Origin: Candidatus Omnitrophota bacterium
GTDB taxonomy: Bacteria > Omnitrophota > Gorgyraeia > Zapsychrales > JANLHA01
Direction: 5' to 3'
DNA: 64,000 bases
Assembly: GCA_022711395.1 (NCBI GenBank)
Contig: JAKLFA010000002.1
Span: forward strand, 131,864-195,863
Shown here: positions 1 to 41,124 of the stretch, one piece after another
Position numbering within the stretch: the first letter of the stretch is position 1
Layout of the letters: each line of letters opens with the position of its first letter
Translations under genes and position numbers: made by a program
The notes under the pieces: generated by a model
The model's input: only the letters and a program-made list of their open reading frames with translations
The model's database searches: none
What the model was told of the DNA's origin: nothing

Positions 1-3000
1 ACACGAAGGATATTGTCCCGTGTAATTAAAGAATGATATTCAGGCCGAATGTTCTGTTGTATAAGTTCCTCCGCCTCTGTTTCGCTTAAAGTTGCCGCGT
101 TGGTGGCCTCACCCGCGGCAGGTTTTGTTTCTATCGATTCAAGGCTATCAAAAAGCTCATTAAAGAACACAACGCCCTCAGCGTAGAGCGCGAGCGCCCG
201 CTCTTCCTTCCCATCATTTTTTAAATGATAGATCGGCAAGTTTGCCATGATCTTGGCCAATGACGCAGACAAGCGCTGTTGCCAGTAGGGGTCGTTTTTC
301 GCAAATTCTGATGATCCAAAAAATTCTTCAGCCAGGGCCGGGAACCGGCGTTCCAACTCTTGATAGACTTGCCAGGCATGGCTGTCTTCTGGAAATTCCA
401 CCGTGATCGAAACGGTCCCATCAGGGTTTTCTTGCCGGGTGGTTTTTTCCAGATCATAGTTGAGCAGGTCATACTTACCGATGACTGTATGCGCGATCTT
501 TGCCAGATCATAGACCGGATCACCAACATAATCACCGCGCGGGTCCAGCAGAACGAATCCTCCGTCTTCTCTGAAAAACATGTTATCAAAATGAAAATCG
601 CCATGCGTCAATCTTAGGGCCGGCGGAGCTAATCGTTTGAGCAATTCCGGGTTCTGTTCCAGTTCGAGCAACAACGGAAGCACGTTTCTGTGGCGCTTTC
701 CATTGATGACGATATACTCAGCCTCAATAACGCTTTGAAAGACTTCGGGCGCTTGGCGCTTGACTTGTTCCAGCGATTCCCGGACCCGGTCGATCAGGAC
801 TTCTTTGAGATACATTTCAGGAACTGGCGCTGTGCGGGCACCCAGCATATGCTCGCGCCAGAATGACAAGACCTCTTTGAGCCGATTGATGATGAAATCT
901 GCGTTTTGCTGATCATAGATAATCGATTGTGTTAACGTCCGCCCTTCGTAGAACGGCATTTCATAATAGGGCTGTTGTTCGCCCTTGGTGTCGACCGATG
1001 TGCCCGGGATGTTTTGCGCGAGATTGAGAATGATCGAACGGACGTCTCCGTTGGCAAAATATGCCCGGACTGGAGATGCGTAAGCGGTTTTAGCCTGAAC
1101 GTCGGCTGCCTCGGCCGCCAAATCCTCGGGAGAGACATTGATGACGCCTTCGACTTCTAAATTTTCCGCTGTCGCTGCTGTTGCCTGTGTTTTTTTGATC
1201 CGCCGATTGATTTCTTCAGCAGGGACATCGGTAACTGCCACATACAATGCGGCATACTCGTTATTTTCCTGTTGGGACTGGTAATGAAAGATCCCCTCCT
1301 CATCGATATAATCATCGGCCTTTTGATCTTTGGACCCGATGCTTCGTAGTCCCTCCCCGACTTTTATAAGTTCATATTCTCCCGGGTTGAGTTTGACCTC
1401 CTGGGAGATTTCCTTGATCGCCACCAGATCTTCCTCCGCGGAGGCTCCGACATGACCGCCGAAGAAATCTTTTTGCCCGGGAGCGTTGACATCCGGCCGC
1501 TGGGCGCGTTTTTGGATCAGGATTTTTCCTGTCGATCTATTATAGATCACCACATGGACAACCCGGTGAGCGGTGCCGTTTTTGTGCGCTGATCCACGGG
1601 TCACAAAAAGGCCGGATGGACGGCCGGTTTTTGTGCTGACCGCATCAAGAAGCTCATTGTCTTTCTCCCCCTTGTAATGGACTTCCAGGTTGTGCCGGAC
1701 CACCCTGGAAAAGAATGGCCGCAATTGGGCCGGCAGCCCCAAGAGCCACTGGACTTGAGCGGTGAATTTCTTTTTATCACGGCCCCAGGAACCGGAAGGG
1801 GATTCTTTGCGGACCCGTCTTTGGCCGAAGTCCGTTTTGATCATCTTGAGATTGTTGGTTGAACCGCCTTTAAGTTTATTCGAGACAGATCTGACCGTTC
1901 GCCGAAGACCTTCGTCCACGCCGGACACAGAGAAAGAATTTTTCATATGCGCGTTGGCCGGCACGGTGATTTGGCTTGCTGAACGGCTGGCAAGAATTGG
2001 AACGGTTTTTTGAGATGAGGCCGTTTGGTCTTTAGATGCCTCTTCGATATAAATTTGCTGGATCCGCTGCGCGAATTCTTTTTTGGTAAGACCTTCAGCG
2101 CCGTTGATTTGGGATGTGCCGTAAGTTTCATTACTGATGACGGTCTTGACTGCTTCAGCCAGATCGTAAATAGACAACGGGTAACGGATCTGGGTGTCAT
2201 CGGCTTCGACCGGCTCTCCACGCTCGATTTTTTGAACAGTTTCTGTCACAAAATTGGAACGGTCATCGGGGGTGTTTCGCCCAAAAAGCATGCCGCTGCG
2301 GATAATGCTGTGCTGTTCAAATTGGCGCACGGCGTCTTCCCCGCGCTGTTTTGTCTGTCCATAAAAATTGATTGGGCTGGGAGAGTCTGATGCCTCATAG
2401 GGTGTTTCTTTTTTTCCGTCAAAGACATAATCAGATGACAGATAAACAAAATGCCCGTTAAAGTATTTTCGGAAGGCGTTGACCGCGCCGGCATTGAGAT
2501 ATTCAGCTGCCTGCGGATCTTTGTCCGCCTCTTGCGGGTCCGCTTCACCTGCGGCATAAACGATCACATCCGGCCGCGTTTCCGCAATGAACTTTTTGAT
2601 CTCATCTTCTTTGGTGACATCGAGTCTTTGAAAATCAGGCGTTTCCGCAGAAAAACTTGTCCCGATCACAGCGACGCTGTTCCCTTGCCGCAAAGCGGAA
2701 TAAATGCGCTGTCCGGCAAATCCGGACGCCCCTACCACGGCCACGGTTTTAAAAGGAGAAACGAAGATAGACTTGATCTGAGGAAATTTATTTTTGATCT
2801 TTTCGACATTTTCCGGGGTCGTTTCGAGCACAAAAATATCATCCGATTGGCTTTTCAGGATGTCCTGAATTCCTTTAAAGGACACGGCCTGGGGGACGCT
2901 TCCATAGGGAAGTATAATGACATCCCCTTCATCTCCATTTTTCAAACTGACTTCATCCGTGAAGTAATATTGAACTCCGTCAAATTCGCCATAAATCCGG

Positions 3001-5021
3001 ATTTTTCCCTTTTTCGTTCGGCCAATACGCTCTGCCAAACTTATGCGCTCATCCTGGCCATTCTGAATATTTTTAAGAGAGCGGTCGATCCTTCGTCCGT
3101 TTTCACCCAGGCTGTTGAGGTCTAAGATCTTATCAAGTGAAGCTCTGGCAGAGTCCGAAAGGCTGACGCCGTCTGATGCCAGGCGCTGCAGCAAACGGTC
3201 CTTAAAAGCGGAAACATTATCCACGTTGATGGCGGACAATACGTCCACCTCTTCTTTGAGGATCAGGGTGATCGCGCTCGCCAATGAGGGATCCATGGTG
3301 TCTAAGACAAGGTCTTCTTGAAATTCTGGATCTTCATCAGGCCGTCGCTCCCGCGTGTGATACATTAAGAATTTTTTAAATTTTTTTCCTTCCGGTGTTT
3401 TTTTGAGGGCTGACCAGATTGTGGACTTACCAACTCCGGAACCGCCTGAGTAAATAAAGAATTTATTTCCGGTCTCAGCCACATCTTTTTCCAGAATTTC
3501 TCTGAATTCTTTTGCCGCTTTGGCGACATTCTCTTGCTTTTGCTGCTCAGTGGGACCGAAAATATTAACTAATTGGTGATCATAGTCTTTTCTAAACTTC
3601 ATCCACCATTGAACGGATAATTCCATGCGTTCCAGCCACTTGTCTTGACGCATATCGATCGGTTCGCGTTGTCTCAATCGCTTCCAGTGCTCATCAATAA
3701 TTAACCGGATATCATGCTCATCGTATCCTTCTGAGACCATTTGGGCGACCAGGTTTTCGACAGATGCTAATTCCTGGGCCAACTTTTCCGCTGGATTTTC
3801 TTTGGGGGTTTCATCTTCCACTACAGACGCGTTGGTGGCGGCGCCGGTTTCCGGGCGGACTTCGAGGGCCAGTTTTAAATTTTTTCCCACAACAGAAGAA
3901 CGCACCTGCGCGGCGCTGGCGGTGGTTCCGATCTCAATGGCCGCGTCCTGAAACCCGCCGGAAAAATACTGTCTGGGGATCACGGTCTGGCTCAATTCAT
4001 CGTAATCTTCCTTAATATAGTTGAACACGCCCTGTTTGTAGGCGTCCATGTATTGCTCATAGATGCGCTCTTTCATTCCTTCATCATCGATCTCGATGCC
4101 CGCGGTCTTGTTGCGGTCGATATACACCTGCGACATCAGGCTGTTTTTCACGGTCTGTTTATACCATTTGGCGAGGATCAGCGAGTGATAGATCTGGCGC
4201 AATGGCGCGAAGTTTTTGCCCTGGTTGACCTCTTTTTCAATTTCAGGCAGGATCAGCTCGCGGATCATGTCTTTGCTGATCTGTGAAAGTTCGTCTGACT
4301 TTGAAACATCCGGCGCGCCCTGAATGCTGGTGCCGTCTGCCTCGCTCTGGCGGCTTTTTTGAAGCGCGATGTAATCCTCATCGAGCATGACCTTAAGATG
4401 CGTGTCCACGATATAGACGGTATTTTTGTGTTCATAAACGACCGCGGTCTCGGGAAGGATCCAGACCTTGTTAAACACATCCGTCGGGACGCTTTCAAGG
4501 CCGTAGCGTTCTTTGGCAGCTTTGTGGATGCGGTCCCAGAATTTCTTGCCCAGTTCGTTTTCAGGATAGACCAGGGTCGCGGTGAGCTGTTTTAAAATAT
4601 AATCCTGCGCCAACAGGTCGCGGCCCAGTTCGGTCTTGCCCAGTTCCTCAGGGATAATACGGTCTTTTTCGTAAGGAGACAAATTGACCCAAAGATCATT
4701 GTGAGGCACGGTCATGGAGGCTAAAAAATATTTGACCAACCGCTGGGATTCGGCCGTTATGTCTTGCTGATCATATTCGGCATTCCCGCTGTCGATAATA
4801 AAATCGAATTGCAGCGGATTGTCCGGATGAACGGTCATGCCTTTTAAGAGAACAGGCACAAAAGCCGGACTTACGCTGACCATGGCTCCCGGCAGCGGAA
4901 GGCCGATCGATTGCGCGTAACCTGGCGGCAGAATGGTTGTGGAAAGAAAGCTGAAAACAAGAACAGCGGACAGAAGTCTTACGGCAAAACCAAAACGGTT
5001 TTGTTGAATGGTGTGGAACAT
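1..5021 (-). CDS. Giant secreted multi-domain protein, at least 1673 aa; C-terminus lies beyond the window start. Domain order: signal peptide; novel N-terminal region of about 430 aa; P-loop NTPase or kinase-like domain; RmlD-like NAD(P)-dependent sugar-nucleotide reductase domain; degenerate Nudix domain; aminoglycoside-phosphotransferase or choline-kinase-like domain
   Basis: Codon-by-codon hand translation of the minus frame (plus-strand triplets starting at positions divisible by 3) found no stop codon from the ATG at 5019-5021 down to position 3. An in-frame TAG lies upstream at 5058-5060. An AGGGGG ribosome-binding site sits 5 nt before the ATG. N-terminus MFHTIQQNRFGFAVRLLSAVLVFSFLSTTILPPGYAQ|SIG is signal-peptide-like. 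Motifs seen: FFIYSGGSGVGKST (Walker A, about 3429-3470); KTVAVVGASGFAGQRIY (Rossmann fold, about 2715-2760) plus FVYLSSDYVFDGKKETPY...PINFYGQTKQRGE (RmlD-like, about 2350-2450); VVHVVIYNRSTGKILIQKRAQ...PGQKDFFGGHVGASAEEDLVAIKEISQEVKL (Nudix-like, about 1410-1570); LRLTHGDFHFDNMFF and LLDPRGDYVGDPVYDLAK (aminoglycoside-phosphotransferase-like, about 510-620). The gene is missing from the supplied ORF track, apparently because the track only lists ORFs that both start and stop inside the window. Confidence 0.8.
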   Translation of the reverse strand, partial: MFHTIQQNRFGFAVRLLSAVLVFSFLSTTILPPGYAQSIGLPLPGAMVSVSPAFVPVLLKGMTVHPDNPLQFDFIIDSGNAEYDQQDITAESQRLVKYFLASMTVPHNDLWVNLSPYEKDRIIPEELGKTELGRDLLAQDYILKQLTATLVYPENELGKKFWDRIHKAAKERYGLESVPTDVFNKVWILPETAVVYEHKNTVYIVDTHLKVMLDEDYIALQKSRQSEADGTSIQGAPDVSKSDELSQISKDMIRELILPEIEKEVNQGKNFAPLRQIYHSLILAKWYKQTVKNSLMSQVYIDRNKTAGIEIDDEGMKERIYEQYMDAYKQGVFNYIKEDYDELSQTVIPRQYFSGGFQDAAIEIGTTASAAQVRSSVVGKNLKLALEVRPETGAATNASVVEDETPKENPAEKLAQELASVENLVAQMVSEGYDEHDIRLIIDEHWKRLRQREPIDMRQDKWLERMELSVQWWMKFRKDYDHQLVNIFGPTEQQKQENVAKAAKEFREILEKDVAETGNKFFIYSGGSGVGKSTIWSALKKTPEGKKFKKFLMYHTRERRPDEDPEFQEDLVLDTMDPSLASAITLILKEEVDVLSAINVDNVSAFKDRLLQRLASDGVSLSDSARASLDKILDLNSLGENGRRIDRSLKNIQNGQDERISLAERIGRTKKGKIRIYGEFDGVQYYFTDEVSLKNGDEGDVIILPYGSVPQAVSFKGIQDILKSQSDDIFVLETTPENVEKIKNKFPQIKSIFVSPFKTVAVVGASGFAGQRIYSALRQGNSVAVIGTSFSAETPDFQRLDVTKEDEIKKFIAETRPDVIVYAAGEADPQEADKDPQAAEYLNAGAVNAFRKYFNGHFVYLSSDYVFDGKKETPYEASDSPSPINFYGQTKQRGEDAVRQFEQHSIIRSGMLFGRNTPDDRSNFVTETVQKIERGEPVEADDTQIRYPLSIYDLAEAVKTVISNETYGTSQINGAEGLTKKEFAQRIQQIYIEEASKDQTASSQKTVPILASRSASQITVPANAHMKNSFSVSGVDEGLRRTVRSVSNKLKGGSTNNLKMIKTDFGQRRVRKESPSGSWGRDKKKFTAQVQWLLGLPAQLRPFFSRVVRHNLEVHYKGEKDNELLDAVSTKTGRPSGLFVTRGSAHKNGTAHRVVHVVIYNRSTGKILIQKRAQRPDVNAPGQKDFFGGHVGASAEEDLVAIKEISQEVKLNPGEYELIKVGEGLRSIGSKDQKADDYIDEEGIFHYQSQQENNEYAALYVAVTDVPAEEINRRIKKTQATAATAENLEVEGVINVSPEDLAAEAADVQAKTAYASPVRAYFANGDVRSIILNLAQNIPGTSVDTKGEQQPYYEMPFYEGRTLTQSIIYDQQNADFIINRLKEVLSFWREHMLGARTAPVPEMYLKEVLIDRVRESLEQVKRQAPEVFQSVIEAEYIVINGKRHRNVLPLLLELEQNPELLKRLAPPALRLTHGDFHFDNMFFREDGGFVLLDPRGDYVGDPVYDLAKIAHTVIGKYDLLNYDLEKTTRQENPDGTVSITVEFPEDSHAWQVYQELERRFPALAEEFFGSSEFAKNDPYWQQRLSASLAKIMANLPIYHLKNDGKEERALALYAEGVVFFNELFDSLESIETKPAAGEATNAATLSETEAEELIQQNIRPEYHSLITRDNILR

Positions 5022-5120
5022 GGCAGCCCCCTGCGTTTTGATATGAAAAAGCGTTTTCTATGCAGAAAAAGCATAGCATATTTTTGATGAAAAAACAAAC
5101 ATGATTAAATTAAGGGAATT

Positions 5121-6626
5121 TTAAGGTGAAACAGGTTTTCGTTCAAAGATCTTTATGGCTGGAATCCGGGTAGAGCTGTTAAGGTCGAAAATTTCCTTTT
5201 TGAGTGAAAAACCGAGCCCCTTAAGAAAATCTTCGGTCTGCTGCTCCTTGCTAAAGGGAAGAAAATCCGTCCCATCTTGCTCACGAAAAGCATTCACTTC
5301 TAAAAGAATGCTTTTATCGGTTCCTTCGACAAGTTTTTTTAGGTCTGACTTCATCGCGGGGCATTCGTAAAGCCGCCCTCCATCCGCCAGATATTCCAGG
5401 CCGGTAAAATAACGGATGCTTCGGTGCTCCTGGGAGACAATAATATGGTCGCTGGTGATATTCTCGTTGATCCATGCCGTGGCGCTGGCGTAATCAAGCG
5501 AATTGGTTTTTAAGCCGGAGATCCTTGACGTAGAGGGGGTGTATTGTTCGATTAAAAAGGCAAAAAGAAAAAGTGCCATTAATTTGGCTATCATAAGCGG
5601 GCGTTCCTTTTGAAACACTCTCTTTAATAGGCCCTCTCCCCCCATCCCCGCCAGGATCAAGATCGCGGGTTGAAGATAGAACACATAGCGCGCGTCGGTC
5701 TGCGGCAACAGAAGGTCTCCGGCCAGGCCAATGGCGAAAAAACCGGACAGAGCCATCAAAAATTTGTTTTTCGTCCAGCATCCAAAGAGAATACCAAGGA
5801 TCATCAACAGGCCGATCTCTTTAAAGAAATAACAGTAGAGCCAGTAACCGGAAATCAATGTGTGACGGAGATGAAAAATAGGCTGTATTCCCAGGCAGCG
5901 AACAGCAGACGGGACCACCAATTTTAACATGGAAGCGCTGATCAGTCCGGGGAACAGCAAGAATTTTCTCAGCCCCAAGATGATGTTCGGACTATACAGC
6001 AAAAGATAGCTCAGAAGGACGAATGGGATCAGGATCATGGCGCTCCACTTGGTCAGCAAGGCCATCAACAGCGTGAGGCTGATCGCCAGGTGAAGCCTGT
6101 TGGTGCTTGTGGGTTTGAGGCGGCTGATCAGAAAGATCAGGATGATGCCCCAGAGCATGAAAAGCATGTCGTTGAGGATAAAAAATCTGAGCCACGAAAA
6201 TGTGTGAAAACCGGTCAGTCCGATGACACAAAAAAGGCCCAAGGCCGGTCCGCTTAGAGACGTCCCTAGGAAGTAAAGAGCGATGATGGTTATGATGCTG
6301 ATGGTCAAGGCGGTCAAGCGGTAAGCGATGATCGGCGGCAGTTCGTTGTTGAGCGTTTTTCCTGCGGCGAGCAAGACCGGAAACAGCGGTGGATGATGTT
6401 CGTTGACCTGGGCGGATGCTATATCGGAGAGGTTTTTCACTATTTTTTCCGCCTGCCAGGCGTAGACAGCCTCGTCACTCATGAGAAACGAGTGGAAATT
6501 CCTGTCTGAAAGAGAGTAAAAACTTAAAAGCTGGCCCCAGAGGATCGACAGGAAGATCATGCCGCAAATGGCTGATTCCCAATGTTTAAGATTTTTTAAT
6601 TGAGGCTGAAATTTCATAGAGGCCAC
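5121..6626 (-). CDS. GT-C fold membrane glycosyltransferase (PMT_2, GT39/GT83, ArnT-like); about 10 transmembrane helices and a soluble C-terminal domain of about 130 aa
   Basis: 501-aa ORF. The first periplasmic loop reads MSDEAVYAWQA...HHPPLFPVLLAAG, matching the DE...HPPL signature of ArnT/PMT-type transferases that use a polyprenyl-phosphate-sugar donor. Many hydrophobic helices follow. Confidence 0.55.
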   Translation of the reverse strand: MASMKFQPQLKNLKHWESAICGMIFLSILWGQLLSFYSLSDRNFHSFLMSDEAVYAWQAEKIVKNLSDIASAQVNEHHPPLFPVLLAAGKTLNNELPPIIAYRLTALTISIITIIALYFLGTSLSGPALGLFCVIGLTGFHTFSWLRFFILNDMLFMLWGIILIFLISRLKPTSTNRLHLAISLTLLMALLTKWSAMILIPFVLLSYLLLYSPNIILGLRKFLLFPGLISASMLKLVVPSAVRCLGIQPIFHLRHTLISGYWLYCYFFKEIGLLMILGILFGCWTKNKFLMALSGFFAIGLAGDLLLPQTDARYVFYLQPAILILAGMGGEGLLKRVFQKERPLMIAKLMALFLFAFLIEQYTPSTSRISGLKTNSLDYASATAWINENITSDHIIVSQEHRSIRYFTGLEYLADGGRLYECPAMKSDLKKLVEGTDKSILLEVNAFREQDGTDFLPFSKEQQTEDFLKGLGFSLKKEIFDLNSSTRIPAIKIFERKPVSP

Positions 6627-7299: not shown

Positions 7300-7830
7300 T
7301 TAGATCTGCGCGGTCGATGCCCAGGAATCGATCTGCGAACGCTCGAAGATCCAGGAATCTCCCGTGCGCTTGGCGGGGATCTTTCCGGCGTTGGCCAGGT
7401 CAATGATCGCGGAAGAATCGATCTGCAGATATTTGGCCAACTCATCGATATTCATGGTGTCCTCGATCATCTGGCACTGCCCCTGAAAAATGGCCCCTTC
7501 GACAATGTTGAGCTTCGGGGTCGTGATGTTGCCGGTCAAGACCGCGGTGGGCATCAAAACCAGCATGCGCTTGGCGATGACGTCCCCTCTGACCTTGCCG
7601 GCCAGGACAATGTTCTCCCCCGTGATATGGGCTTCCACGAAAGCGTTGTTTCCTATGGTCAGGGTCCCGCGGACATCCAGGGTCCCGTTGAAATTGCCGT
7701 TGACCTTGAGGTTTACAGGATCTTTAAAGGACAGAGAGCCCTGCATTTGGGCGCTGATCTCAATGGTCTTTTCCTCCTGGGAAGAGCTGGACGCTGAATC
7801 GGAACGTGTTTTGCTGGGTTTGAACGCCAT
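7300..7830 (-). CDS. Bactofilin (DUF583 beta-helical polymerising domain) fused to a C-terminal excisionase-type HTH domain
   Basis: 176 aa. SLSFKDPVNLKVNGNFNGTLDVRGTLTIGNNAFVEAHITGENIVLAGKVRGDVIAKRMLVLMPTAVLTGNITTPKLNIVEGAIFQGQCQM has the bactofilin repeat pattern. The C-terminal part MNIDELAKYLQIDSSAIIDLANAGKIPAKRTGDSWIFERSQIDSW matches the HTH_17 pattern. Confidence 0.6.
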   Translation of the reverse strand: MAFKPSKTRSDSASSSSQEEKTIEISAQMQGSLSFKDPVNLKVNGNFNGTLDVRGTLTIGNNAFVEAHITGENIVLAGKVRGDVIAKRMLVLMPTAVLTGNITTPKLNIVEGAIFQGQCQMIEDTMNIDELAKYLQIDSSAIIDLANAGKIPAKRTGDSWIFERSQIDSWASTAQI

Positions 7831-9410: not shown

Positions 9411-10769
9411 TTACGATGCCGGTTTTGCTTCCTCAGTCTTTGCTTCCGGTTTAACGACTTCCCCCGGCTGGGAAAGGGTTTTATAGACCCGGATGCCTTT
9501 GATCACGTTGATCGCGCTCTGGACCTGGTTGTCATCCAGCAGCTTTTGTCGGCGTTCCTTTTCAGCCTGCGTCAGTTTGGTCATCGCGGGGTCTTCGGAT
9601 TTTTCCTGTTCGACTTTATTAAAAAGCTCGTCTATGTCTTTCTCTGAGGTTTTTTCTTCCGTTGCTTCGGGTTTGGCGATTGGTTCCACCACGATGTCCG
9701 GGGTGATGCCTGTCCCGTGGATCGAGACGCCGGATGGTGTGAAGTATTTGCTGGTCGTAAGCCGTAAGCCCGAACCGTCGGGAAGCGGAATGACCGACTG
9801 GACAGAACCCTTTCCGAACGATTGTGTCCCCAGAATAACGGCCCGTTTATTGTCCTTAAGAGCCCCAGCAAGGATCTCGCTGCCTGACGCGCTTCCTTTA
9901 TTGATGAGGACCACCACCGGCCAGTCCAGGACCTTGTGATTGGTCGTCCGGGCGATGCTTTCCTCGTTCTGCGAGGGGCGGCGCCCTTTGGTGGAAACGA
10001 TCAGCGCGCCCTGCGGCAGAAAATCTTCCGTGATCTCGATGGCGACGTTCAAAAGCCCTCCGGGATTGTTGCGAAGATCAAGGATCAGGCTGTTGGCATC
10101 TTCTTTTTTGAGCTTTTCCAACGCCTTGTGGAACTCTTCGGCGGAATTTTCCCGGAATTCGGTCAGTCGGATATATCCGACCTGATCGGTCAGGATCTGA
10201 ACATCCTTCACGTCCTGGATCTGGATCACTTCACGTTTGATCGTAAAATCCAGGATCTTGAATTCGTCCTCCCGTAAGATCGTGATGTTGATCTCAGTTC
10301 CCGGATCGCCGCGCAACTTTTTGACGGCATCGCTCAGGGTGATGTCCCGGGTCAGCTCGTCCTCGATCTTCACGATGCGGTCCCCGGCCTTGATCCCCGC
10401 CTTCCAGGCGGGGGTATCTTCGATCGGAGAAATGACGGTCAAAAGCCCGTCTTTAATGGAGATCTCGATCCCCAGGCCGCCGAACTTGCCTTGGGTCTCG
10501 GTCTTCAGCTCCGAATATTCTTCTGCATCCATGAACTGGCTGTGAGCGTCGAGTGATGAGAGCATCCCGCGCAAAGAGCCGTAGATCAGGTCCTGCGGTG
10601 TTTTTTCATCGACATATTCCGTCTGGATCGTTGTCAAAGCGTAGGTGAACAGTTCGATCTGCGAATAGATATCCGCGGCCGCGGTCTTCGCGATCTGTGA
10701 GAACGCGATCGTTGTCAGGGCCAGAAAAACGAACCCCACGGCCAGGATAGTTACCAATCTCTTACGCAT
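9411..10769 (-). CDS. ctpA: C-terminal processing peptidase (S41, tail-specific protease) with a PDZ domain
   Basis: PDZ-like GGLGIEISIKDGLLTVISPIEDTPAWKAGIKAGDRIVKIED. S41 core NKGSASGSEILAGALKDNKRAVILGTQSFGKGSVQ. Confidence 0.8.
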   Translation of the reverse strand: MRKRLVTILAVGFVFLALTTIAFSQIAKTAAADIYSQIELFTYALTTIQTEYVDEKTPQDLIYGSLRGMLSSLDAHSQFMDAEEYSELKTETQGKFGGLGIEISIKDGLLTVISPIEDTPAWKAGIKAGDRIVKIEDELTRDITLSDAVKKLRGDPGTEINITILREDEFKILDFTIKREVIQIQDVKDVQILTDQVGYIRLTEFRENSAEEFHKALEKLKKEDANSLILDLRNNPGGLLNVAIEITEDFLPQGALIVSTKGRRPSQNEESIARTTNHKVLDWPVVVLINKGSASGSEILAGALKDNKRAVILGTQSFGKGSVQSVIPLPDGSGLRLTTSKYFTPSGVSIHGTGITPDIVVEPIAKPEATEEKTSEKDIDELFNKVEQEKSEDPAMTKLTQAEKERRQKLLDDNQVQSAINVIKGIRVYKTLSQPGEVVKPEAKTEEAKPAS

Positions 10770-15856: not shown

Positions 15857-16863
15857 GAGGAGGATCGCCTGCTTAAAAGTTGTTTTGTGGTCAAGTCTGC
15901 CGCCATGATGATCGCCTCTGTCATGGACGAGGCGTCCGCCCTGTTTTTTCCAGCGATATCGAAGGCGGTGCCGTGCGCCGTGGATGTCCGGATGAACGGC
16001 AGGCCGATCGTCAGGTTGACCAGTTGCGTAAAATAAAGCGCTTTGATCGGCGTCAGGCCCTGGTCATGGTACATCGCAATGATCAGGTCATAGGATTTGG
16101 CGTTCGATGGGATAAAAAGCGTGTCGGCCGCGAAGGGGCCTTCGGCCATGATCCCGTTCTGCTTCGCTGCTTGTATAGCGGGAATGACCGTTTCCTGTTC
16201 TTCCAAACCCAGTTTTCCCCCCTCGCCTGCGTGCGGATTCAGGCCGCAGACAGCGATCCTCGGTTGTGGGATCTTAAAAAGCGTCCGCAAGGTCCGGTCA
16301 CAGAGCTCGATGCTTTTGAGGACTTTCTCCCGGGTGATCCCTTTTGGGACATCTTTTAGGGGGACGTGACGGGTGACGATGATCGTTTTAAAAGGCCCTC
16401 CGGCAAACATCATTTCAAAATCCTTGATTCCGAACGCATCAGCCAAAACTTCAGTATGCCCCGGGAAGTGTTCTCCTGAAAGCATGATCGCTTCCTTGCT
16501 GACAGGGGCTGTGACCAGGCCATCGACCGTGCCGGAACGTAAAAGATCAATGGCTTTTCGCAAATAGGCGTAGGCCGCTTTTCCGCAGGCCGCATTGGTC
16601 TTGCCGATCTGCAACTGAGAAGGGTCGATCATCCGCATATCGAGAAATTCGATATTTTCAGCAAGCTCTCCCCCGTCACGCATGTAGACAGAATGGTCGC
16701 CAATGATGACAAAATCCGCCAGGGTCCGGATGCGTTCTGATCGTAAAGCTTTTACGGTGATCTCCGCTCCGATGCCTGCAGGGTCCCCCAGGGTGATGCC
16801 GAGTTTTGGTCTGATAGCGTGGTGTCGTATCATCGATCGTTCCTTAAGGTTGCTTGATCTCAA
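15853..16863 (-). CDS. pdxA: 4-hydroxythreonine-4-phosphate dehydrogenase
   Basis: GITLGDPAGIGAEI...GHTEVLAD...HGTAFDIAGK. The start may be the internal Met at 16833. Confidence 0.85.
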   Translation of the reverse strand: MRSSNLKERSMIRHHAIRPKLGITLGDPAGIGAEITVKALRSERIRTLADFVIIGDHSVYMRDGGELAENIEFLDMRMIDPSQLQIGKTNAACGKAAYAYLRKAIDLLRSGTVDGLVTAPVSKEAIMLSGEHFPGHTEVLADAFGIKDFEMMFAGGPFKTIIVTRHVPLKDVPKGITREKVLKSIELCDRTLRTLFKIPQPRIAVCGLNPHAGEGGKLGLEEQETVIPAIQAAKQNGIMAEGPFAADTLFIPSNAKSYDLIIAMYHDQGLTPIKALYFTQLVNLTIGLPFIRTSTAHGTAFDIAGKNRADASSMTEAIIMAADLTTKQLLSRRSSS

Positions 16864-17797
16864 TGTATGCTTTTTTCCGTTCTTTGTCTATCCAGCGCTG
16901 CAGTTCTTCCTTGAATTTGGTGCTTAGAAGGAAGTTCGATATTTGATTTTTAACATCGTCAAGGGGGGCAGTTTCTTTTTCGGTCTTGCCCAGCATTTTC
17001 ACGATGAATATCCCTTTTTCAGATTCGATAGGATCAGAGACCTGGTTGATATCGAGTTTGAACAGTTCTTTTTCAAGGTCAGGAAGAAGTTCCCCTTTCG
17101 CGATAGTGCCCAAAGAGGGCAAAGTCGAGAATTCGTTGGCCACGCTGCGGAAGTTCTCGCCGCTCTTAACGCGCTCGGAGGCCTGCTCGGCTTTAAGCTG
17201 GGCGGAGGATCGGTCCTCTCCTTCATATGGGATAAAGATCGAATCAAGATTGATGCGTTCCGGTTTGGTAAAATCCAGGATATGATCATGATAATATTGC
17301 GTTACTTCTTGAGGCGTCACGAAAATCTTGGCCTTGATCTCCTGTTCTAGAAAATATTTAGTGATGAGCTGATTGGAGATCTGCTGGCGCAGGTCAGTGA
17401 TGGAAAGGCCATCCTTGGCCAGGGCGCTTAGAAACACGGCTTCGGAAGGATATTTGGCCTGGATCTCGGTCAGACGTCCAGTGACCGCGGCGGGTTTCGC
17501 CTCATAACCCTTGGCCTTTGCCGCGCTGAGGATCAGGCGGTCATCGATCAGACGTTCAATCCCGTTTTCCTCCAGGTCTTTGGCTGCGGACTGGAGTTCT
17601 TTTTCAGACACAATACTCGTTTCGAGCTGTTTATAGGATGCGATAAGAAAATTTTTCAGGTCTTTGAGAGTGATAATGTCTTCATTGACGACCGCGATGA
17701 TGGCATCCTCCAAGGCCAGGGCTGGTCCGCAAAAGGCTGGCATCAGGCCGAAGATCAGGAATGCGAACATGAACATGATCGAACAAAATTTTTTCAT
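16844..17797 (-). CDS. surA: SurA-like periplasmic chaperone and parvulin-type peptidyl-prolyl isomerase
   Basis: Signal peptide, SurA N-terminal region, parvulin core GENFRSVANEFS...GELL...SDPIESEKGIFIVK. The surA-pdxA-rsmA order matches the enterobacterial operon. Confidence 0.7.
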   Translation of the reverse strand: MKKFCSIMFMFAFLIFGLMPAFCGPALALEDAIIAVVNEDIITLKDLKNFLIASYKQLETSIVSEKELQSAAKDLEENGIERLIDDRLILSAAKAKGYEAKPAAVTGRLTEIQAKYPSEAVFLSALAKDGLSITDLRQQISNQLITKYFLEQEIKAKIFVTPQEVTQYYHDHILDFTKPERINLDSIFIPYEGEDRSSAQLKAEQASERVKSGENFRSVANEFSTLPSLGTIAKGELLPDLEKELFKLDINQVSDPIESEKGIFIVKMLGKTEKETAPLDDVKNQISNFLLSTKFKEELQRWIDKERKKAYIEIKQP

Positions 17798-33835: not shown

Positions 33836-34456
33836 TCAGCGGGACACCTGGCTGAATGAAAATCCTGTTTGAACGGAAAAACGCGGATTTGTCAGGTCCG
33901 AATCCAGTTGCGATGGATCCGCGGCCCGGCTGAGCTCAACCGTTAAGGTGTTGAGAGGCTGCCCTCCTCCCGGAAATTCTTGCATGACAAAGTCGCATTG
34001 ATCGCAAATCATGGAAGCTGATTGCGGTTGCCAGGTTAGGGAGAAGACGCGTTCCGTGACCCCAGAGAGGGAACCGTGATAACAAATGATCTGTGCATCG
34101 AAAAGATCTTTGCCGCTGCCCAAAAGATCCCTAAAGCAAAAACCTGGGTCAGCGGAAATGCTTTCACTCCTGTCAATGATCACTCCGACAGGGTCGGTTT
34201 GGACGTTTGGAAAACTTCCAAATTGCGGGACTGTGATGATCCCCGATCCGCGCGCTTCCCATGCCATTTTTTTGATGCGCACCAGGGCCGCGCTCAACTG
34301 CGTGGTATTGCGCAGCCTGATCGAGGCCACATTTTGGGTCCTGCGGATCGCTGTATCGACCGAAACAATCCCCACGACGGCAACACCGATCAGCATGGAT
34401 GTGATCAGAAGTTCCGTGAGCGTCAAGGCTGATTTTGAAATTGCGGGATTTTTCAT
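33836..34456 (-). CDS. Minor pilin or pseudopilin (prepilin-type N-terminal domain)
   Basis: ALTLTELLITSMLIGVAVVGI is an N-terminal hydrophobic prepilin helix. Confidence 0.55.
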   Translation of the reverse strand: MKNPAISKSALTLTELLITSMLIGVAVVGIVSVDTAIRRTQNVASIRLRNTTQLSAALVRIKKMAWEARGSGIITVPQFGSFPNVQTDPVGVIIDRSESISADPGFCFRDLLGSGKDLFDAQIICYHGSLSGVTERVFSLTWQPQSASMICDQCDFVMQEFPGGGQPLNTLTVELSRAADPSQLDSDLTNPRFSVQTGFSFSQVSR

Positions 34457-34466
34457 GATCGGGTTT

Positions 34467-34925
34467 CTACCAGCTCACATTGACCGTGATCTCTTTGGCT
34501 CCTGTAAAATCGTTTGTCACGTTATAAACAACAAGAAAGGGCATATCATCCTTCACGATGGTTTTTGAGTAGCTTCCGCCGTTTACAAAGTTGCCCGCCG
34601 GGTCAACCCAGGCCTCTGTTGTGATCTGTCCCCTGAGGCTTTCAATGATATCCTGGGCGATGAACGCGGCTTGAACTTCTCGAGTGCTTTCGGCTGCCGG
34701 GCGGCTTAAGGCTGAAAGTGTTGCCAGGATGCCCGCTGTCGCCATGGCAAAGATCAGTGTCGCGACGATCACTTCGACCATTGAAAAACCGTTACGGCCT
34801 AGAAGTTGTCTGCTAATTGCAGACCGGCCCGTTGAAAACAGCTTGTTTTGGGCAGAGATGATGACCATTTCCCGCTCCTGTTGAAACACAGCTGACATCA
34901 GCTGAGTCCGATATGATTTTAACAT
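34467..34925 (-). CDS. Type IV pilin-like protein; start uncertain because the track ORF overlaps the upstream gene
   Basis: Prepilin cleavage motif RNGF|SMVEVIVATLIFAMATAGILA (G-F with Glu at +5). Confidence 0.55.
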   Translation of the reverse strand: MLKSYRTQLMSAVFQQEREMVIISAQNKLFSTGRSAISRQLLGRNGFSMVEVIVATLIFAMATAGILATLSALSRPAAESTREVQAAFIAQDIIESLRGQITTEAWVDPAGNFVNGGSYSKTIVKDDMPFLVVYNVTNDFTGAKEITVNVSW

Positions 34926-35319
34926 GAAATGTCAGGTTGAGTTCTGTGAATGTTTTGTCAGCGTAACAAGCGAACGTGGTCCCTCCCGGGGTGGCTGAGC
35001 AGATATAGGTCCAGCCGTTGTCAGGAAAACCCAATTCAAACTTTTGAAGGATCTGGGAAAAGCTCGACGAGCAAGCATTATCCGGTTCGTTCGGCCAAAA
35101 GTGGCCGGTGTTCATGTAAATGGTCTGCTGGGCGGCGAAGATCGCACGCATATTGGTCCTTGTCCGTTCGATATCCTGATCAATCACCAGCATGCGGAGT
35201 TTTGGCAGCGCAAGGGCCGCCAAGGTTGCAATGATGACCATGACGACCATGATCTCTACAAGGGTGAAGCCGTTCTTTTTTTGATGCTGTGTTGAGCGTG
35301 TAATTGGCATAAGGAGCAT
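34813..35319 (-). CDS. Type IV pilin or pseudopilin
   Basis: KKNGF|TLVEIMVVMVIIATLAALALP. Confidence 0.65.
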   Translation of the reverse strand: MLLMPITRSTQHQKKNGFTLVEIMVVMVIIATLAALALPKLRMLVIDQDIERTRTNMRAIFAAQQTIYMNTGHFWPNEPDNACSSSFSQILQKFELGFPDNGWTYICSATPGGTTFACYADKTFTELNLTFHVKIISDSADVSCVSTGAGNGHHLCPKQAVFNGPVCN

Positions 35320-35320
35320 T

Positions 35321-35761
35321 TTAGTTATATTTCATTTTTGCACAAAGGGTCGCATTATTCAAACAAATGATCCTGCCGTCAAAACCGATGGCCAGAGTAT
35401 AAAGCGTTGTCGATCCGCTCATCCGGTTGATGCGGATCGGCGCTGTTTCACCAGCAGAATAATAAGGGTAACTGAAATTCGGTGGTTTACGGCTGTTGTC
35501 AAAATCGATGGCTGTGAAATTCGAGGTCCAGAAGCTGCACGGGTAAGCGGAGCATGTTTTTCTGAAATTATCGACCGCATAACGTTGTTCAGATGCGTAG
35601 ATCGCAATTAAAAACTGTTCCCCCTCTTTTGCACGGAACCGTTCGATCACGGTGCCCATTTTCGGAAGTGCCGCTGCAGAAAGGATGCCAACGATCACAA
35701 CGACGACCATGATCTCGATCAATGTGAAAGCTGCCGAAAAGTTTTTGGTTGCGGACGACAT
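35321..35761 (-). CDS. Type IV pilin or pseudopilin
   Basis: SAAF|TLIEIMVVVVIVGILSAAALP. Confidence 0.65.
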   Translation of the reverse strand: MSSATKNFSAAFTLIEIMVVVVIVGILSAAALPKMGTVIERFRAKEGEQFLIAIYASEQRYAVDNFRKTCSAYPCSFWTSNFTAIDFDNSRKPPNFSYPYYSAGETAPIRINRMSGSTTLYTLAIGFDGRIICLNNATLCAKMKYN

Positions 35762-35805
35762 GGTTTTGGGTCACGTGATGGTTATGCGCATTTATGATTG
35801 TGTTG

Positions 35806-35840
35806 AAAAGCCGGCCCTCAAACAGCGAGGGCCGGCTTTT
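35806..35840 (-). terminator. Intrinsic terminator (10-bp GC-rich stem) immediately after the putative major pilin gene
   Basis: gccggccctc aaacagc gagggccggc, flanked by AAAA and TTTT. Confidence 0.6.
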
Positions 35841-35865
35841 CGTAATAGAAAACTTAAACGCCTCC

Positions 35866-36327
35866 TTACTTCAAGCCGGAAAAGGCTCCTATTCCGGTCC
35901 GTGTGACGTTCGTAGATGTTTGTGCGACGATAATCTGAGATCCGGTGCTCCCACCATCAAGCGTGTTGCGGTATGCCGTAATCGTGTATCCCACCGTTGA
36001 CGGAGAGGTGATCGAATAGGTGAAGTGCGCATTCGGCGACGAAGCAGGTGTTTCAATGTCCAGCTGGGTGAAACCGCCGTTGCCGCAGTTGACGTAAGTC
36101 CCATTATTCTGAAGGTAGCACCTTTCCATGGAAGAACGGATCGTCGCGATCGCGGATAACGCTTCCGCGCTTCTTGAGAATTCGACGGTTGAGAACAGAC
36201 GAGGTAAAGCTAAACTCGCCAAGACACCAACGATGATGATGACAATGATAATTTCAAGCAGTGTAAAACCGCTTTGGTTGCGTTTTAAACTCATTTTTTC
36301 GTCTCCTTTATGTATAACAGAATTCAC
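35866..36327 (-). CDS. pilA: Type IV major pilin (PilA-like)
   Basis: NQSGF|TLLEIIIVIIIVGVLASLALP. Followed by its own terminator. Confidence 0.7.
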   Translation of the reverse strand: MNSVIHKGDEKMSLKRNQSGFTLLEIIIVIIIVGVLASLALPRLFSTVEFSRSAEALSAIATIRSSMERCYLQNNGTYVNCGNGGFTQLDIETPASSPNAHFTYSITSPSTVGYTITAYRNTLDGGSTGSQIIVAQTSTNVTRTGIGAFSGLK

Positions 36328-36410
36328 TAATTTTTGATTTTAGGTTTAACCGCGTTTCACTGCGCTTTTTTCGCCTGGCATCACATCCTTTCAGGGTTGA
36401 TGGGTTTGAG

Positions 36411-36448
36411 CTTAAAAACAAAAACCACTCTATCCTTTTAGAGTGGTT
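36411..36448 (-). terminator. Intrinsic terminator after the pilB-pilC transcript
   Basis: aaccactcta tccttt tagagtggtt. On the minus strand the stem is followed by TTTGTTTTT. Confidence 0.55.
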
Positions 36449-36662
36449 TTAATTCGATGTTCGAATTATCGGCAGCTGGCTATCCCAAATGGTTTGGGAC
36501 CCTGTAGTTTTGTGCCCTACCCTCACGGATAGTTTACCTTGAACAATAATTCTCATATGTTCTTGCCTTAAGTATAGCTGATTCAAGCTTAAATATCAAT
36601 GTCTACAGACCTACCTATATAATAATAAATATATATAAATAAAAAAAGAATTTTCTTAAGAA

Positions 36663-37916
36663 TTAACCTCCTCCGCCTCCGCCCAACTGGGCAATGTTGA
36701 ACATCGGTAGAAACATCGCCAGGACAATGATGCCGATCACCGCTCCCATGAAGACAAGCATGAATGGCTCAATGACGGTTGCAAGGCGCTTCATGAACGT
36801 TTCGACCGTTTCCTGATAGAAATTGGCGACATGCTTCAGCATTTTGCTGAGTTCCCCGGTCTCTTCTCCCACGATGATCATTTGGATGGCCATGCCCGGG
36901 AAGAACTCGCTTCTCTCCATCGGGGCGGCCAGCAACTCGCCTCTGCGGACGCTTTCTTTGATATCGGAAATCACATTAGCGCAGGTCATGTTATCGACAA
37001 GCCGCTGGCTGATATCCAAGGCTTGAAGGATCGGAACGCCGCTGTCAACGAGGATCGCCATCTGGGACGTGAAGCGTTCCACGATGATGAGGCGGAAGAT
37101 GTTTCCGAATGTGGGCAGGCTTAATAGGAATTTCTCCTTTGCGAATCGGCCGGATGGGGTTTGGATGTAGCGTTTTATGAGAAAGACCGCCACAGCGATA
37201 GTGCCGATGATCAAAAGGAATTTCTCCTTGATAAATCGGAACGTGCCCAAAAGGATCTTGGTGATGAGTGGCAGGTCTACGCCCATAGTCGTGAAAATGC
37301 TTTCGAAACGCGGCCCAACGAAAAGTGCGAAAAATGAAACGGCTCCCATACAGATGAAGAACAGGATCACAGGATACATGATCGACGATATGATCGTTGA
37401 GCGGAAGTGCGCTTGTTGTTCCAGATAAAAGGATAATTTGTTCAAGACCTTAGGCAGGGTCCCTGCTGCTTCACCGACTTCAATGAGGCTGACCCAGAAT
37501 TGATTGAAGACCTTGGGATGATGGGCCATGGCCTCTGAAAGCGCGCTGCCGTGCTCAACATCACGGTTGACCTGTTCGATCACGCTGTAAAGTTTTTCGC
37601 TTTCGATCTGGCTGAGGATGACCTCCAGGCTTCTTAAAAGGGTCACGCCGGATTCAAGCATGGTGACAAGCTGGCGGGAAAAAGAGATCACATCATGGAG
37701 TTTGATCTTCTTATGGGTGAATTTTTTTTCCTTTGTTTTTTTAGGGGCTGCAGCGGCCGCCTCGATGCCCGGTTCGCTGGATACCGATTCAATCTTAAGA
37801 ACGAAGTATCCCTGCTTTTGAAGTTTCTCAATAAGGGATTCCCTGGAAAAGTCCTCAACGACGTTGGTAAGGGTTTTGCCATATGAGTCTTTAATGGTGT
37901 ATTTGAATTTTGGCAA
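36663..37916 (-). CDS. pilC: Type IV pilus or type II secretion platform protein (PilC/GspF family)
   Basis: 417 aa with two GspF-type repeats and inner-membrane helices. Confidence 0.8.
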   Translation of the reverse strand: MPKFKYTIKDSYGKTLTNVVEDFSRESLIEKLQKQGYFVLKIESVSSEPGIEAAAAAPKKTKEKKFTHKKIKLHDVISFSRQLVTMLESGVTLLRSLEVILSQIESEKLYSVIEQVNRDVEHGSALSEAMAHHPKVFNQFWVSLIEVGEAAGTLPKVLNKLSFYLEQQAHFRSTIISSIMYPVILFFICMGAVSFFALFVGPRFESIFTTMGVDLPLITKILLGTFRFIKEKFLLIIGTIAVAVFLIKRYIQTPSGRFAKEKFLLSLPTFGNIFRLIIVERFTSQMAILVDSGVPILQALDISQRLVDNMTCANVISDIKESVRRGELLAAPMERSEFFPGMAIQMIIVGEETGELSKMLKHVANFYQETVETFMKRLATVIEPFMLVFMGAVIGIIVLAMFLPMFNIAQLGGGGGG

Positions 37917-37938
37917 TGTCCGGGCTCCTTAAAGGTGC

Positions 37939-39654: not shown

Positions 39655-39666
39655 GCCAATGGTCCT

Positions 39667-41109: not shown

Positions 41110-41124
41110 CTTGAGCCTCTCCTT

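Follow-up and report, generated by a model that had tools for sequence, protein, structure and literature searches.

A cysteine-free multi-enzyme protein of Omnitrophota, very probably an exported member of an apparently undescribed head-and-tail family

Bacteria of the phylum Omnitrophota are ubiquitous and uncultured, and most are ultra-small. They are believed to depend on life attached to other cells, and their huge secreted multi-enzyme proteins are an open puzzle. Long multi-enzyme proteins with signal peptides have been described in two preprints, as 'Archaeovorins' (10.1101/2023.11.21.568195) and as 'multi-enzyme metabolic clusters' (10.64898/2026.06.07.730766), and are touched on by Seymour et al. 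2023. About 94% of these giants carry a signal peptide and/or transmembrane (TM) segments (10.1101/2023.11.21.568195; 10.64898/2026.06.07.730766). Here we analyse a gene of the same phylum, located at the beginning of a 64,000-nucleotide stretch of Candidatus Omnitrophota contig JAKLFA010000002.1 (positions 131,864 to 195,863; the whole stretch is called the window below, and positions are counted within it). The gene lies on the minus strand, starts at position 5021 and runs out of the window at position 1. We are highly confident that this segment encodes an intact, exported member of a protein family in which a conserved head (the N-module) and a conserved tail (the C-motif) enclose a variable cargo.

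The window protein and its family share several traits with the giants, namely the repertoire of domains (enzymes of sugar and nucleotide metabolism, kinases such as ROK, NUDIX, radical SAM and receiver domains, HEAT and TPR scaffolds) and the presence in the same genomes of type II secretion system (T2SS) or Tad-type loci, a T2SS-like one being found here in the window. The giants are defined by their length, 10,000 to 147,000 residues, which the window protein, with 2,849 residues, does not reach; it does combine, as they do, many unrelated enzyme domains with repeat scaffolds and a signal peptide and/or TM segments. Full-text searches of the two giant-protein preprints gave no description of the junction motifs presented below, of the N-module and C-motif or of the depletion in cysteine, and the head-and-tail frame, its scale, its junction motifs and its cysteine depletion were not found in Pfam, NCBIfam or the searchable literature. 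The head-and-tail family is therefore, apparently, undescribed.

Translated with genetic code table 11, the minus strand of positions 1-5021 contains 1,673 sense codons and no stop. Upstream, the frame is closed by a stop at a distance of 12 codons, after which the ATG at 5021 is the earliest start, and a ribosome-binding site, AGGGGG (5027..5032, minus strand), can be read in the sequence 5 nt ahead of this ATG. No open reading frame (ORF) was listed over the first 5 kb in the ORF track supplied with the window; since ORFs running off the source are not listed, this gap is a listing artefact, as the sequence-only reading had guessed. The full-length gene is available as protein P0209 (JGI call, contig Ga0116241_10000030, 516,161 bp), whose residues 1-1673 are identical to the window translation and which totals 2,849 residues, while the NCBI entry HSA31335.1 (P0001), deposited as 'sugar nucleotide-binding protein, partial' from a Candidatus Omnitrophota metagenome-assembled genome (MAG), differs from it at one residue. 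Finding the same frame in independent assemblies indicates that it is real and intact. The window thus holds the N-terminal 59% of the protein, and 1,176 more codons lie past its edge: the single uninterrupted gene that had been proposed does exist and does continue beyond the window, and its size, then put at 1,673 codons or more, becomes 2,849 residues. The motifs quoted at that stage were all located in the window translation. The 2,849 codons of the full-length call contain no stop, and an overlooked stop, a pseudogene (or pseudogene desert) and an alternative genetic code are all ruled out by the clean table 11 frame together with the JGI and NCBI calls.

It could still be argued that the gene is an artefact, either a chimeric assembly or ordinary genes fused and decaying, and some family loci in MAGs are indeed broken by frameshifts or masked bases. 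We give this hypothesis almost no credence, given that the identical frame is found both in the JGI 516-kb contig and in NCBI MAG contigs, that the order of modules is kept in the relatives P0002 (53% identical) and P0003 (44% identical), that 2,849 codons follow each other without a stop and with a G+C content uniform along the gene, and that the hallmarks of the frame, head and tail, both lie at the expected ends. In the broken family genes (L001:6257-9787, and also L029, L040, L042 and L050), a frameshift, a stop or masked bases separate one ORF with the N-module from another with the C-motif, which may reflect assembly errors or genuine decay.

The N-module spans residues 37-395 (3837..4913, minus strand) and contains the conserved blocks LP.PG.MV, WVNLSPYE.DRIIP..LGKTELGRD.LAQDYILKQ, FNKVWI.PE, EIEKEVN.GKNFAPLRQIYHSLILAKWYK and IPR.YFSGG. 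Among the best 120 database matches to the protein, 118 have only residues 1 to about 360-400 in common with it, always at their own N-terminus and with 46 to 69% identity. A profile (A1) was built from 20 N-modules and run against a library of 1.84 billion proteins clustered at 50%; it recovered at least 8,381 cluster representatives, with E<=1e-30 for 6,757 of these. In the 150 A1 matches listed, which are 420 to 4,969 residues long, the module is always at the extreme N-terminus, and in 148 it forms a single stretch; P0001 itself scores 648.6 bits over residues 1-397. Neither the N-module nor the C-motif has a model in Pfam-A (2025) or NCBIfam 20.0, or a sequence or fold relative in the PDB. 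Comparing the N-module with Pfam at E<=1 and E<=10 gave nothing consistent, its profile had no match among PDB sequences at E<=10, and a Foldseek search of the PDB with the model of a 585-residue member returned a best E-value of 0.79. The N-terminal region called novel in the sequence-only reading is thus not peculiar to this protein, as it heads at least 8,381 clusters.

Among GTDB species genomes, at least 582 family loci were confirmed and 79 were kept for analysis, all from Omnitrophota MAGs or placeholder-labelled bins of the Planctomycetota-Verrucomicrobiota-Chlamydiota (PVC) group. Several genomes have 4 to 8 copies in a single assembly, and same-strand tandem arrays of two to four genes are common; a tblastn search of the rest of the 64-kb window gave no N-module paralogue. 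Going by the labels, the family is apparently restricted to Omnitrophota. Some members and loci (P0006, P0057, L003, L005, L008 and others) bear the NCBI labels 'Candidatus Bathyarchaeia archaeon' or 'uncultured Planctomycetales', which probably correspond to mis-binning or placeholder taxonomy, and not to an occurrence outside the phylum.

What follows the head varies widely. Pfam domains found in the cargo include HEAT, ankyrin and TPR repeats, ROK, NDK, PGK, PGI, PFK, UDP-glucose pyrophosphorylase, aldose epimerase, methyltransferases, Nudix, HAD, radical SAM, receiver and GGDEF domains, among others. Cargo overlaps (at least 30% in common) in 0.9% of member pairs, and in 1.5% if their N-modules are at least 60% identical. 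The tail, in contrast, is present at the end of nearly every complete family ORF. This C-motif of about 60 residues, GGID..(~35 aa)..GF.PVII.I.P...LP.LGL (GF.PVIINI.P...LPLLGL), lies within about 110 residues of the stop, with a median of 11 residues from motif end to stop. A hidden Markov model of it detected 84 ORFs in the 79 loci, of which 67 also have an N-module; the other 17 are all cut by the edge of the locus or represent 3' halves of N-module genes that a frameshift or masked bases have broken. There is never more than one C-motif per ORF, and P0209 has a single copy. As nearly all members also have one N-module stretch, longer proteins built of repeated head-tail units were ruled out. 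Divergence of the two ends is coupled: N-module identity and C-motif identity correlate (Spearman 0.64), a value reached by none of 300 Mantel permutations. The shortest member found with both ends, P0129 (585 residues), consists of an N-module, a linker of about 110 residues with a hydrophobic helical hairpin, and a C-motif. AlphaFold predicts a mixed alpha/beta fold with long helices for the N-module, and a beta-rich element of three strands for the C-motif.

Short motifs mark the boundaries between modules. They occur after the N-module, just ahead of the C-motif and between cargo modules, and are strongly over-represented: in 209 family proteins, D.AM[LMVI] was observed 196 times for 9.4 expected (about 21-fold) and [AS]SSP[IVL] 136 times for 1.8 expected (about 75-fold), whereas in flanking proteins D.AM[LMVI] was observed 6 times for 6.0 expected. 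The window protein has no canonical D.AM. Its place is taken by TNA[SA]x[LV], present in four copies (residues 396, 1640, 1775 and 2225), each at a module boundary. Two of these are in the window: TNASVV (residues 396-401; 3819..3836, minus strand) ends the N-module, and TNAATL (residues 1640-1645; 87..104, minus strand) ends the enzyme cassette. The four copies partition the protein into head, enzyme cassette, small module, HEAT block 1, hairpin plus HEAT block 2, and tail, and the cassette boundary drawn in this way is also the boundary of the part in common with P0002. The 133 sites examined at the DNA level comprise 121 distinct 15-mers, and such diverse codons point to selection at the protein level; a DNA-level recombination scar was ruled out on the same count. 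An internal start with a Shine-Dalgarno sequence was also considered, and dropped because the conserved residue is Asp (GAY), a codon that is not GGAG-compatible. The junction motifs may be processing sites.

Several observations indicate that the protein is exported. Its first 36 residues (4914..5021, minus strand) form a signal peptide in which a positive n-region (with R9 and R15) is followed by an uncharged core and then by YAQ; signal peptidase I is predicted to cut after GYA, ahead of QS. The Sec-type signal peptide that had been proposed from the sequence alone is therefore confirmed in its tripartite structure, and statistics of the family agree: among 183 members, the n-region has a median net charge of +3, with at least +1 in 98% of them, and [YF]AQ is found in 65%. 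Cysteine provides another indication. There is none among the 2,849 residues of the full-length protein, and cysteine makes up 0.107% of the family ORFs of the 79 loci, while the 506 ORFs that flank them on these contigs reach 1.114% (p=7e-46). Of the 313 cysteines counted in 209 family proteins, 125 (40%) are within the first 40 residues, and radical-SAM members keep their CxxxCxxC ligands. In the window itself, three soluble housekeeping proteins exported by Sec, the protease Ctp (9411-10769), a SurA-like chaperone (16844-17797) and a secretin (39667-41109), have no cysteine after residue 40, while the 34 cytoplasmic-like ORFs average 1.37%; the pilins of the window retain cysteine pairs. 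Cysteine seems to be excluded generally from the exported proteome of the source organism, and the fact that the family level equals that of the organism's exported proteins is a strong argument against a cytoplasmic location. As for membrane segments, the cargo of 131 of 149 members has no strongly hydrophobic segment; one is present in the window protein and in 6/7 of its C-tail subtype, compared to 25 of 142 other members at a laxer cut-off. The window protein thus fits the 'signal peptide + TM' class, which makes up 39% of Omnitrophota long proteins in the literature.

The enzyme cassette begins, after the first junction motif, with a linker and helical extension (residues 402-514; 3480..3818, minus strand) that has no family match and is conserved in P0002 and P0003. 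Next comes a P-loop module (residues 515-757; 2751..3479, minus strand) with the motifs GGSGVGKST (residues 526-534), HTRERR and GEFDGVQYYF. It matches the guanylate kinase model TIGR03263 in two stretches (E=1.4e-6; 28.1 bits, for an equivalog cut-off of 160). PDB guanylate kinases are also matched in two pieces, guanylate kinase positions 8-47 corresponding to residues 520-560 and positions 47-126 to residues 676-755, from which we deduce a guanylate-kinase-like, non-contiguous fold with a 115-residue insertion in the GMP-binding subdomain (residues 561-675; 2997-3341, minus strand). The Walker-A P-loop noticed earlier is therefore present, and can now be assigned to this split fold.

The following module (residues 758-1044; 1890..2750, minus strand) is an RmlD-like extended short-chain dehydrogenase/reductase, with 145.9 bits against PF04321 (RmlD_sub_bind; E=1.8e-42, cut-off 27) and 146.5 bits against the RmlD equivalog TIGR01214, whose cut-off is 224. 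Its best PDB relatives are MAT2B (E=1e-26), a regulatory relative of RmlD, and RmlD itself (E=3e-21); with both it shares the extended fold, and its motifs GASGFAG (residues 764-770), SSDYVFDG (862-869) and YGQTK (887-891) align with theirs, corresponding to the NAD(P)-binding GxxGxxG, to SSDYVFDG and to YGxTK, so that the nucleotide-binding motif and the catalytic Ser/Thr-Tyr-Lys are both present. Unlike them, it is embedded in an exported, cysteine-free protein of 2,849 residues and scores below the equivalog cut-off. No rmlA, rmlB or rmlC gene was found within 10 kb downstream of the gene or in the 59 kb of window upstream.

The remainder of the cassette is a kinase of the APH/choline-kinase fold, interrupted by a Nudix-bearing insertion. 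The first part of the N-lobe (residues 1045-1113; 1683..1889, minus strand), which belongs to a contiguous APH match in P0002, has the Gly-rich loop LKGGSTNN and a putative ATP-binding Lys in RVRKES. The rest of the fold (residues 1350-1639; 105..974, minus strand) matches PF01636 (APH) over profile positions 143-210 (E=9.5e-9; 35.8 bits, cut-off 23.2), with the hinge YYEMPFYEGRT, the catalytic loop HGDFHFDN (residues 1473-1480) and the metal-binding LLDPRGD (1491-1497). It therefore has the elements of PF01636 kinases, that is, the Gly-rich loop, the Lys, the HGDxxxxN loop (HxDxxxxN in its general form) and the downstream metal-binding Asp, but its N-lobe is broken by 236 residues, and the module is too divergent for a PDB sequence match, none being found with the insert removed. 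The two lobes are not contiguous in the window protein, whereas the APH match of P0002 (53% identical) is unbroken over profile positions 5-210, and in BLAST residues 12-1113 and 1350-1627 of the query align to neighbouring P0002 segments. These boundaries, together with the contiguous APH match, indicate that residues 1114-1349 (975..1682, minus strand), within which lies a YfcD/IDI-like Nudix fold, are an insertion between N-lobe and hinge; it is absent from P0002 and found at the same position in P0003. The Nudix-like box GGHVGASAEEDLVAIKEISQEVKL carries K for R, Q for the first E of the EE pair and K for G, and its upstream E is one residue off, which bears out the degeneracy reported earlier; the P0003 box retains KEGTEE.

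In a HMMER/Pfam-type check of the segments, RmlD_sub_bind and APH thus came out above their cut-offs and NUDIX below, while guanylate kinase was recognised via NCBIfam. Four enzyme-type folds are present, as the sequence-only reading had it; they do not simply follow one another, the Nudix fold being nested in the N-lobe of the kinase. Reductase and kinase both keep their catalytic motifs. A cassette of exactly this kind is rare (a cargo-only search found it in 5 clusters) and has no named, characterised homologue, but the earlier statement that nothing like it was known proved too strong, given that long multi-enzyme proteins with signal peptides have already been described for Omnitrophota (10.1101/2023.11.21.568195; 10.64898/2026.06.07.730766).

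Only the first residues of the next module (1646-1673; 1..86, minus strand) are in the window, as the gene runs past its edge. In P0209, which together with locus L080 shows the remainder, a small module of unknown type extends to residue 1775 and is followed by a first HEAT block of five HEAT-like repeats (residues 1795-2190), a strongly hydrophobic hairpin (2228-2281), a second HEAT block of four HEAT-like repeats (2330-2600), an unknown stretch and the C-motif region (2771-2849). The C-terminal end reads VGGIDMNTIDIDRQGG...IQGFTPVIIDITPINSVLPILGL, and its motif stretch is also given as VGGIDMNTIDIDRQGG..IQFDMTGMEPLLNMDIQGFTPVIIDITPINSVLPILGL. The C-terminus, which the sequence-only reading could not reach, is in this way recovered, with two HEAT blocks, the hairpin and a conserved C-motif. 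HEAT-type cargo modules of many family members open with a header, (D.AML or TNASIL)-(G/S)GPWTL.GAR..L, seen in P0209 at residues 1775-1800 and 2225-2330; in the second copy, the hydrophobic hairpin is inserted within the header.

Three further systems resemble this organisation in their logic only, and the sequence-based membership tests were negative for all of them. TpsA exoproteins and polymorphic toxins have, like the family, a Sec signal, an N-terminal domain that is conserved over a few hundred residues and a long, recombining, variable remainder, and they are also cysteine-poor and multi-copy. However, the two-partner secretion (TPS) domain PF05860 has no match in 20 N-modules at E<=10, TpsA has a beta-helix domain where a mixed alpha/beta fold with long helices is predicted here by AlphaFold, and there is no TpsB/Omp85 gene beside the window gene, nor any recurrent transporter among the neighbours in the 79 loci. 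The family carries metabolic enzymes and repeats, and not toxins with immunity genes, plus an obligatory C-motif. In MARTX toxins, conserved N- and C-terminal regions flank variable effector modules that are freed by cleavage between modules. RtxA-type repeats and the cysteine protease domain have no Pfam match in P0209, a protein without any cysteine, and the family has a Sec signal peptide where MARTX toxins have a type I secretion signal. Finally, cargo of the type IX secretion system (T9SS) joins an N-terminal Sec signal to a beta-rich element, conserved and about 60-80 residues long, at the extreme C-terminus of otherwise unrelated proteins, as the family does. Por_Secre_tail and other C-terminal domain (CTD) models did not match P0209 (Pfam, E<=0.1) or P0005, P0013 and P0046 (NCBIfam, E<=0.1), and the T9SS CTD is a 7-stranded Ig-like sandwich (PMC11285876), in contrast to the three strands predicted for the C-motif. 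T9SS is moreover a Bacteroidota system, and its cargo has no conserved N-module.

The anatomy of the family, the membership of the window protein, its Sec signal, the coupling of head and tail, the swapping of cargo and the export-type composition are established, and the question arises as to what such an arrangement is for. We hold with moderate confidence that the protein is best explained as a whole as an exported family member, in which head and tail are a common device and the cargo serves nucleotide and sugar-phosphate chemistry. The frame consists of a cleavable Sec signal peptide, the N-module of about 360 residues, variable cargo with junction motifs and the C-motif of about 60 residues; the cargo here is the enzyme cassette, the small unknown module and the two HEAT blocks separated by the hairpin. 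After translocation by Sec the protein would work outside the producer's cytoplasm, probably tethered to a membrane by the hairpin with both large parts on the far side, and N-module and C-motif together would act as the sorting, anchoring or assembly device of all members. The guanylate-kinase-like module would be a nucleoside monophosphate kinase, the RmlD-like module an NAD(P)H-dependent sugar-nucleotide reductase and the APH-like module a small-molecule kinase, the Nudix fold would bind or hydrolyse a nucleoside diphosphate linked to another moiety (NDP-X), and the HEAT blocks would bind proteins. The cassette may then perform nucleotide and sugar-phosphate chemistry, or mere ligand binding, on the cell's surface or where it touches a partner or a prey cell; delivery into such a partner is only inferred.

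A number of points weigh against this explanation. Localisation, processing and activity are deduced from sequence and not from experiment, and the AlphaFold models have moderate confidence (pTM 0.62-0.67). The correlation between head and tail is no proof of contact and could result from shared descent alone. No secretion or partner gene is consistently adjacent when neighbours are clustered over the 79 loci, and the T2SS-like locus of the window is not adjacent to the family gene. The Nudix match is below the PF00293 cut-off (E=0.0027, 18.2 bits for 21.1), its best PDB match is weak (YfcD 2fkb, E=0.12), and the box GGHVGASAEEDLVAIKEISQEVKL at residues 1188-1211 is degenerate relative to GX5EX7REUXEEXGU. 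It is not obvious how folds that need ATP and NAD(P)H would be supplied with them in the periplasm or outside the cell, receiver or radical-SAM domains of some members are hard to reconcile with work after Sec export, and the hydrophobic hairpin could mean inner-membrane retention instead of secretion.

Where the protein acts is thus the main matter of debate, and three scenarios are considered. The exported protein may stay with its producer, tethered by the hairpin in the periplasm or at the surface, where it would process or bind nucleotides, sugar phosphates and nucleotide-sugars from the environment or from lysed prey. The combination of signal peptide and hydrophobic hairpin ('SP+TM' class) suggests such a residence, as does a cysteine depletion equal to that of bona fide periplasmic proteins of the organism, and the degenerate Nudix box suggests binding over catalysis; for the glycolytic-type domains of giant Omnitrophota proteins, an extracellular pre-processing of sugars was proposed by West-Roberts et al. 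(10.1101/2023.11.21.568195). The periplasmic or surface-bound enzyme acting on nucleotide-sugars imagined by the sequence-only reading is compatible with these data. However, a periplasmic supply of ATP and NAD(P)H is not known, yet the catalytic motifs of kinase and reductase are intact, and the dependence of three of the four folds on these cofactors argues against ordinary periplasmic catalysis; nor does this scenario account for receiver, radical-SAM and ankyrin cargo in the same frame, or for the obligatory C-motif and the junction motifs. We see it as possible, on the unlikely side. Alternatively, the N-terminal helix may be an uncleaved anchor, and the enzymes a fused pathway held at the membrane in the producer's own cytoplasm. 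The four folds are cytoplasmic in other organisms and depend on ATP or NAD(P)H, the N-terminus is a helix of 19-23 residues in the AlphaFold models, and the genomic context is of the housekeeping type. Against this, positive charges ahead of the hydrophobic core predict an N-in, C-out orientation, and the core is followed by a conserved [YF]AQ site of the signal-peptidase type; the ten-fold cysteine depletion fits exported and not cytoplasmic proteins of the same genome, and the conserved C-motif is left without a reason. We therefore tend to exclude this second scenario, which appears very improbable.

In the third scenario, the protein is an effector platform, exported by Sec, passed through the outer membrane and active on or inside a host or prey cell, with head and tail as translocation or sorting device and the junction motifs as proteolytic sites freeing the cargo modules, a logic similar to that of MARTX toxins or TPS exoproteins. 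The cargo repertoire of the family resembles that of a cytosol (kinases, NDK, PGK, PGI, ROK, UDP-glucose pyrophosphorylase, methyltransferases, receiver, radical SAM), and also comprises the ankyrin, HEAT and TPR repeats typical of effectors, and the cofactor needs of the window cassette suit a cytoplasm better than a periplasm. Extreme cysteine depletion is the pattern of proteins that cross the outer membrane unfolded, autotransporter passengers being the case in point. Selection acts on the junction motifs at the protein level, family genes occur in several copies and in tandem arrays and swap their cargo, and a secretin machine is encoded in the window. Omnitrophota have also been inferred to be host-dependent or predatory (PMC10066038), and their giant multi-enzyme proteins adjoin T2SS/Tad loci (10.1101/2023.11.21.568195). 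Nevertheless, no sign was seen of passage through the outer membrane, of cleavage or of a target cell, and neither a protease domain nor a dedicated transporter gene is linked to the family in the 79 loci; the hairpin of the window protein and its subfamily favours membrane retention, and the TPS, T9SS CTD and MARTX sequence tests were all negative. We find this scenario doubtful as it stands. The cofactor dependence and the cytosolic or effector-like cargo favour an action touching or inside another cell, while the hairpin and the lack of a linked transporter favour residence in the producer's envelope. In a bolder version, to be taken as speculation and rather improbable, head and tail would be an unrecognised, phylum-wide delivery or display platform: a Sec-exported, cysteine-free precursor would be carried across the outer envelope, or anchored in it, by head and tail together, the junction motifs (D.AM[LMVI], SSSP[IV], TNA[SA]xL) would release enzymes and scaffolds at or inside host or prey, and the same grammar would perhaps be found in the giants of 10,000-147,000 residues.

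Returning to the explanation that we prefer, an exported protein with a common head-and-tail device, the family matters more than the specific enzyme combination. The exact protein is already deposited under a generic name. The window gene is a tractable handle on the puzzle of the huge secreted Omnitrophota proteins, as it belongs to a family of normal-sized proteins (about 0.6 to 5 thousand residues) with a defined head, tail and junction grammar, in which near-absent cysteine is an independent compositional mark of export. With a profile, its members can be identified and their number determined for each genome, and pieces of them can be expressed, the 585-residue member being a convenient construct. 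If the frame is a sorting or delivery device, it would represent a new secretion logic in diderm bacteria and would explain the signal peptides found on cytoplasm-type enzymes in Omnitrophota; if it is only an envelope anchor, it would still be among the largest uncatalogued bacterial domain families.

Concerning the surroundings of the gene, a complete, secretin-based locus resembling T2SS or type IV pilus systems is located 29 kb away (33836-43860, minus strand). It encodes four prepilin-like ORFs with N-methylation motifs, GspF (T2SSF), a secretin of 480 residues, a PilM-like protein and GspE with an MshEN domain that binds cyclic di-GMP; further on (46147-48639) is a TPR protein of 830 residues with a signal peptide. 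Over the 79 loci, some neighbours of family genes recur loosely: stand-alone receiver domains (12 loci), ABC ATPases (8), GAF-ANTAR proteins (6), and also TrpG and GT-C/TPR membrane proteins. The neighbour directly preceding the window gene, separated from it by 99 nt and likewise transcribed from the minus strand (5121-6617), encodes a multi-spanning membrane protein of 498 residues, which has no Pfam match and no counterpart beside other family members in the 79 loci. Further upstream, one gene joins a bactofilin domain to an HTH_17 DNA-binding domain at the C-terminus (7300-7830, minus strand), with a second small HTH_17 gene beside it according to the JGI calls. Downstream of the gene and outside the window (L080:18673-24144), a GDSL-like protein is encoded together with a trehalose set comprising GT20 OtsA, an OtsB-like phosphatase and a GH15 trehalase/glucoamylase; that sugar metabolism is found beside a cargo of sugar-nucleotide type may be a coincidence.

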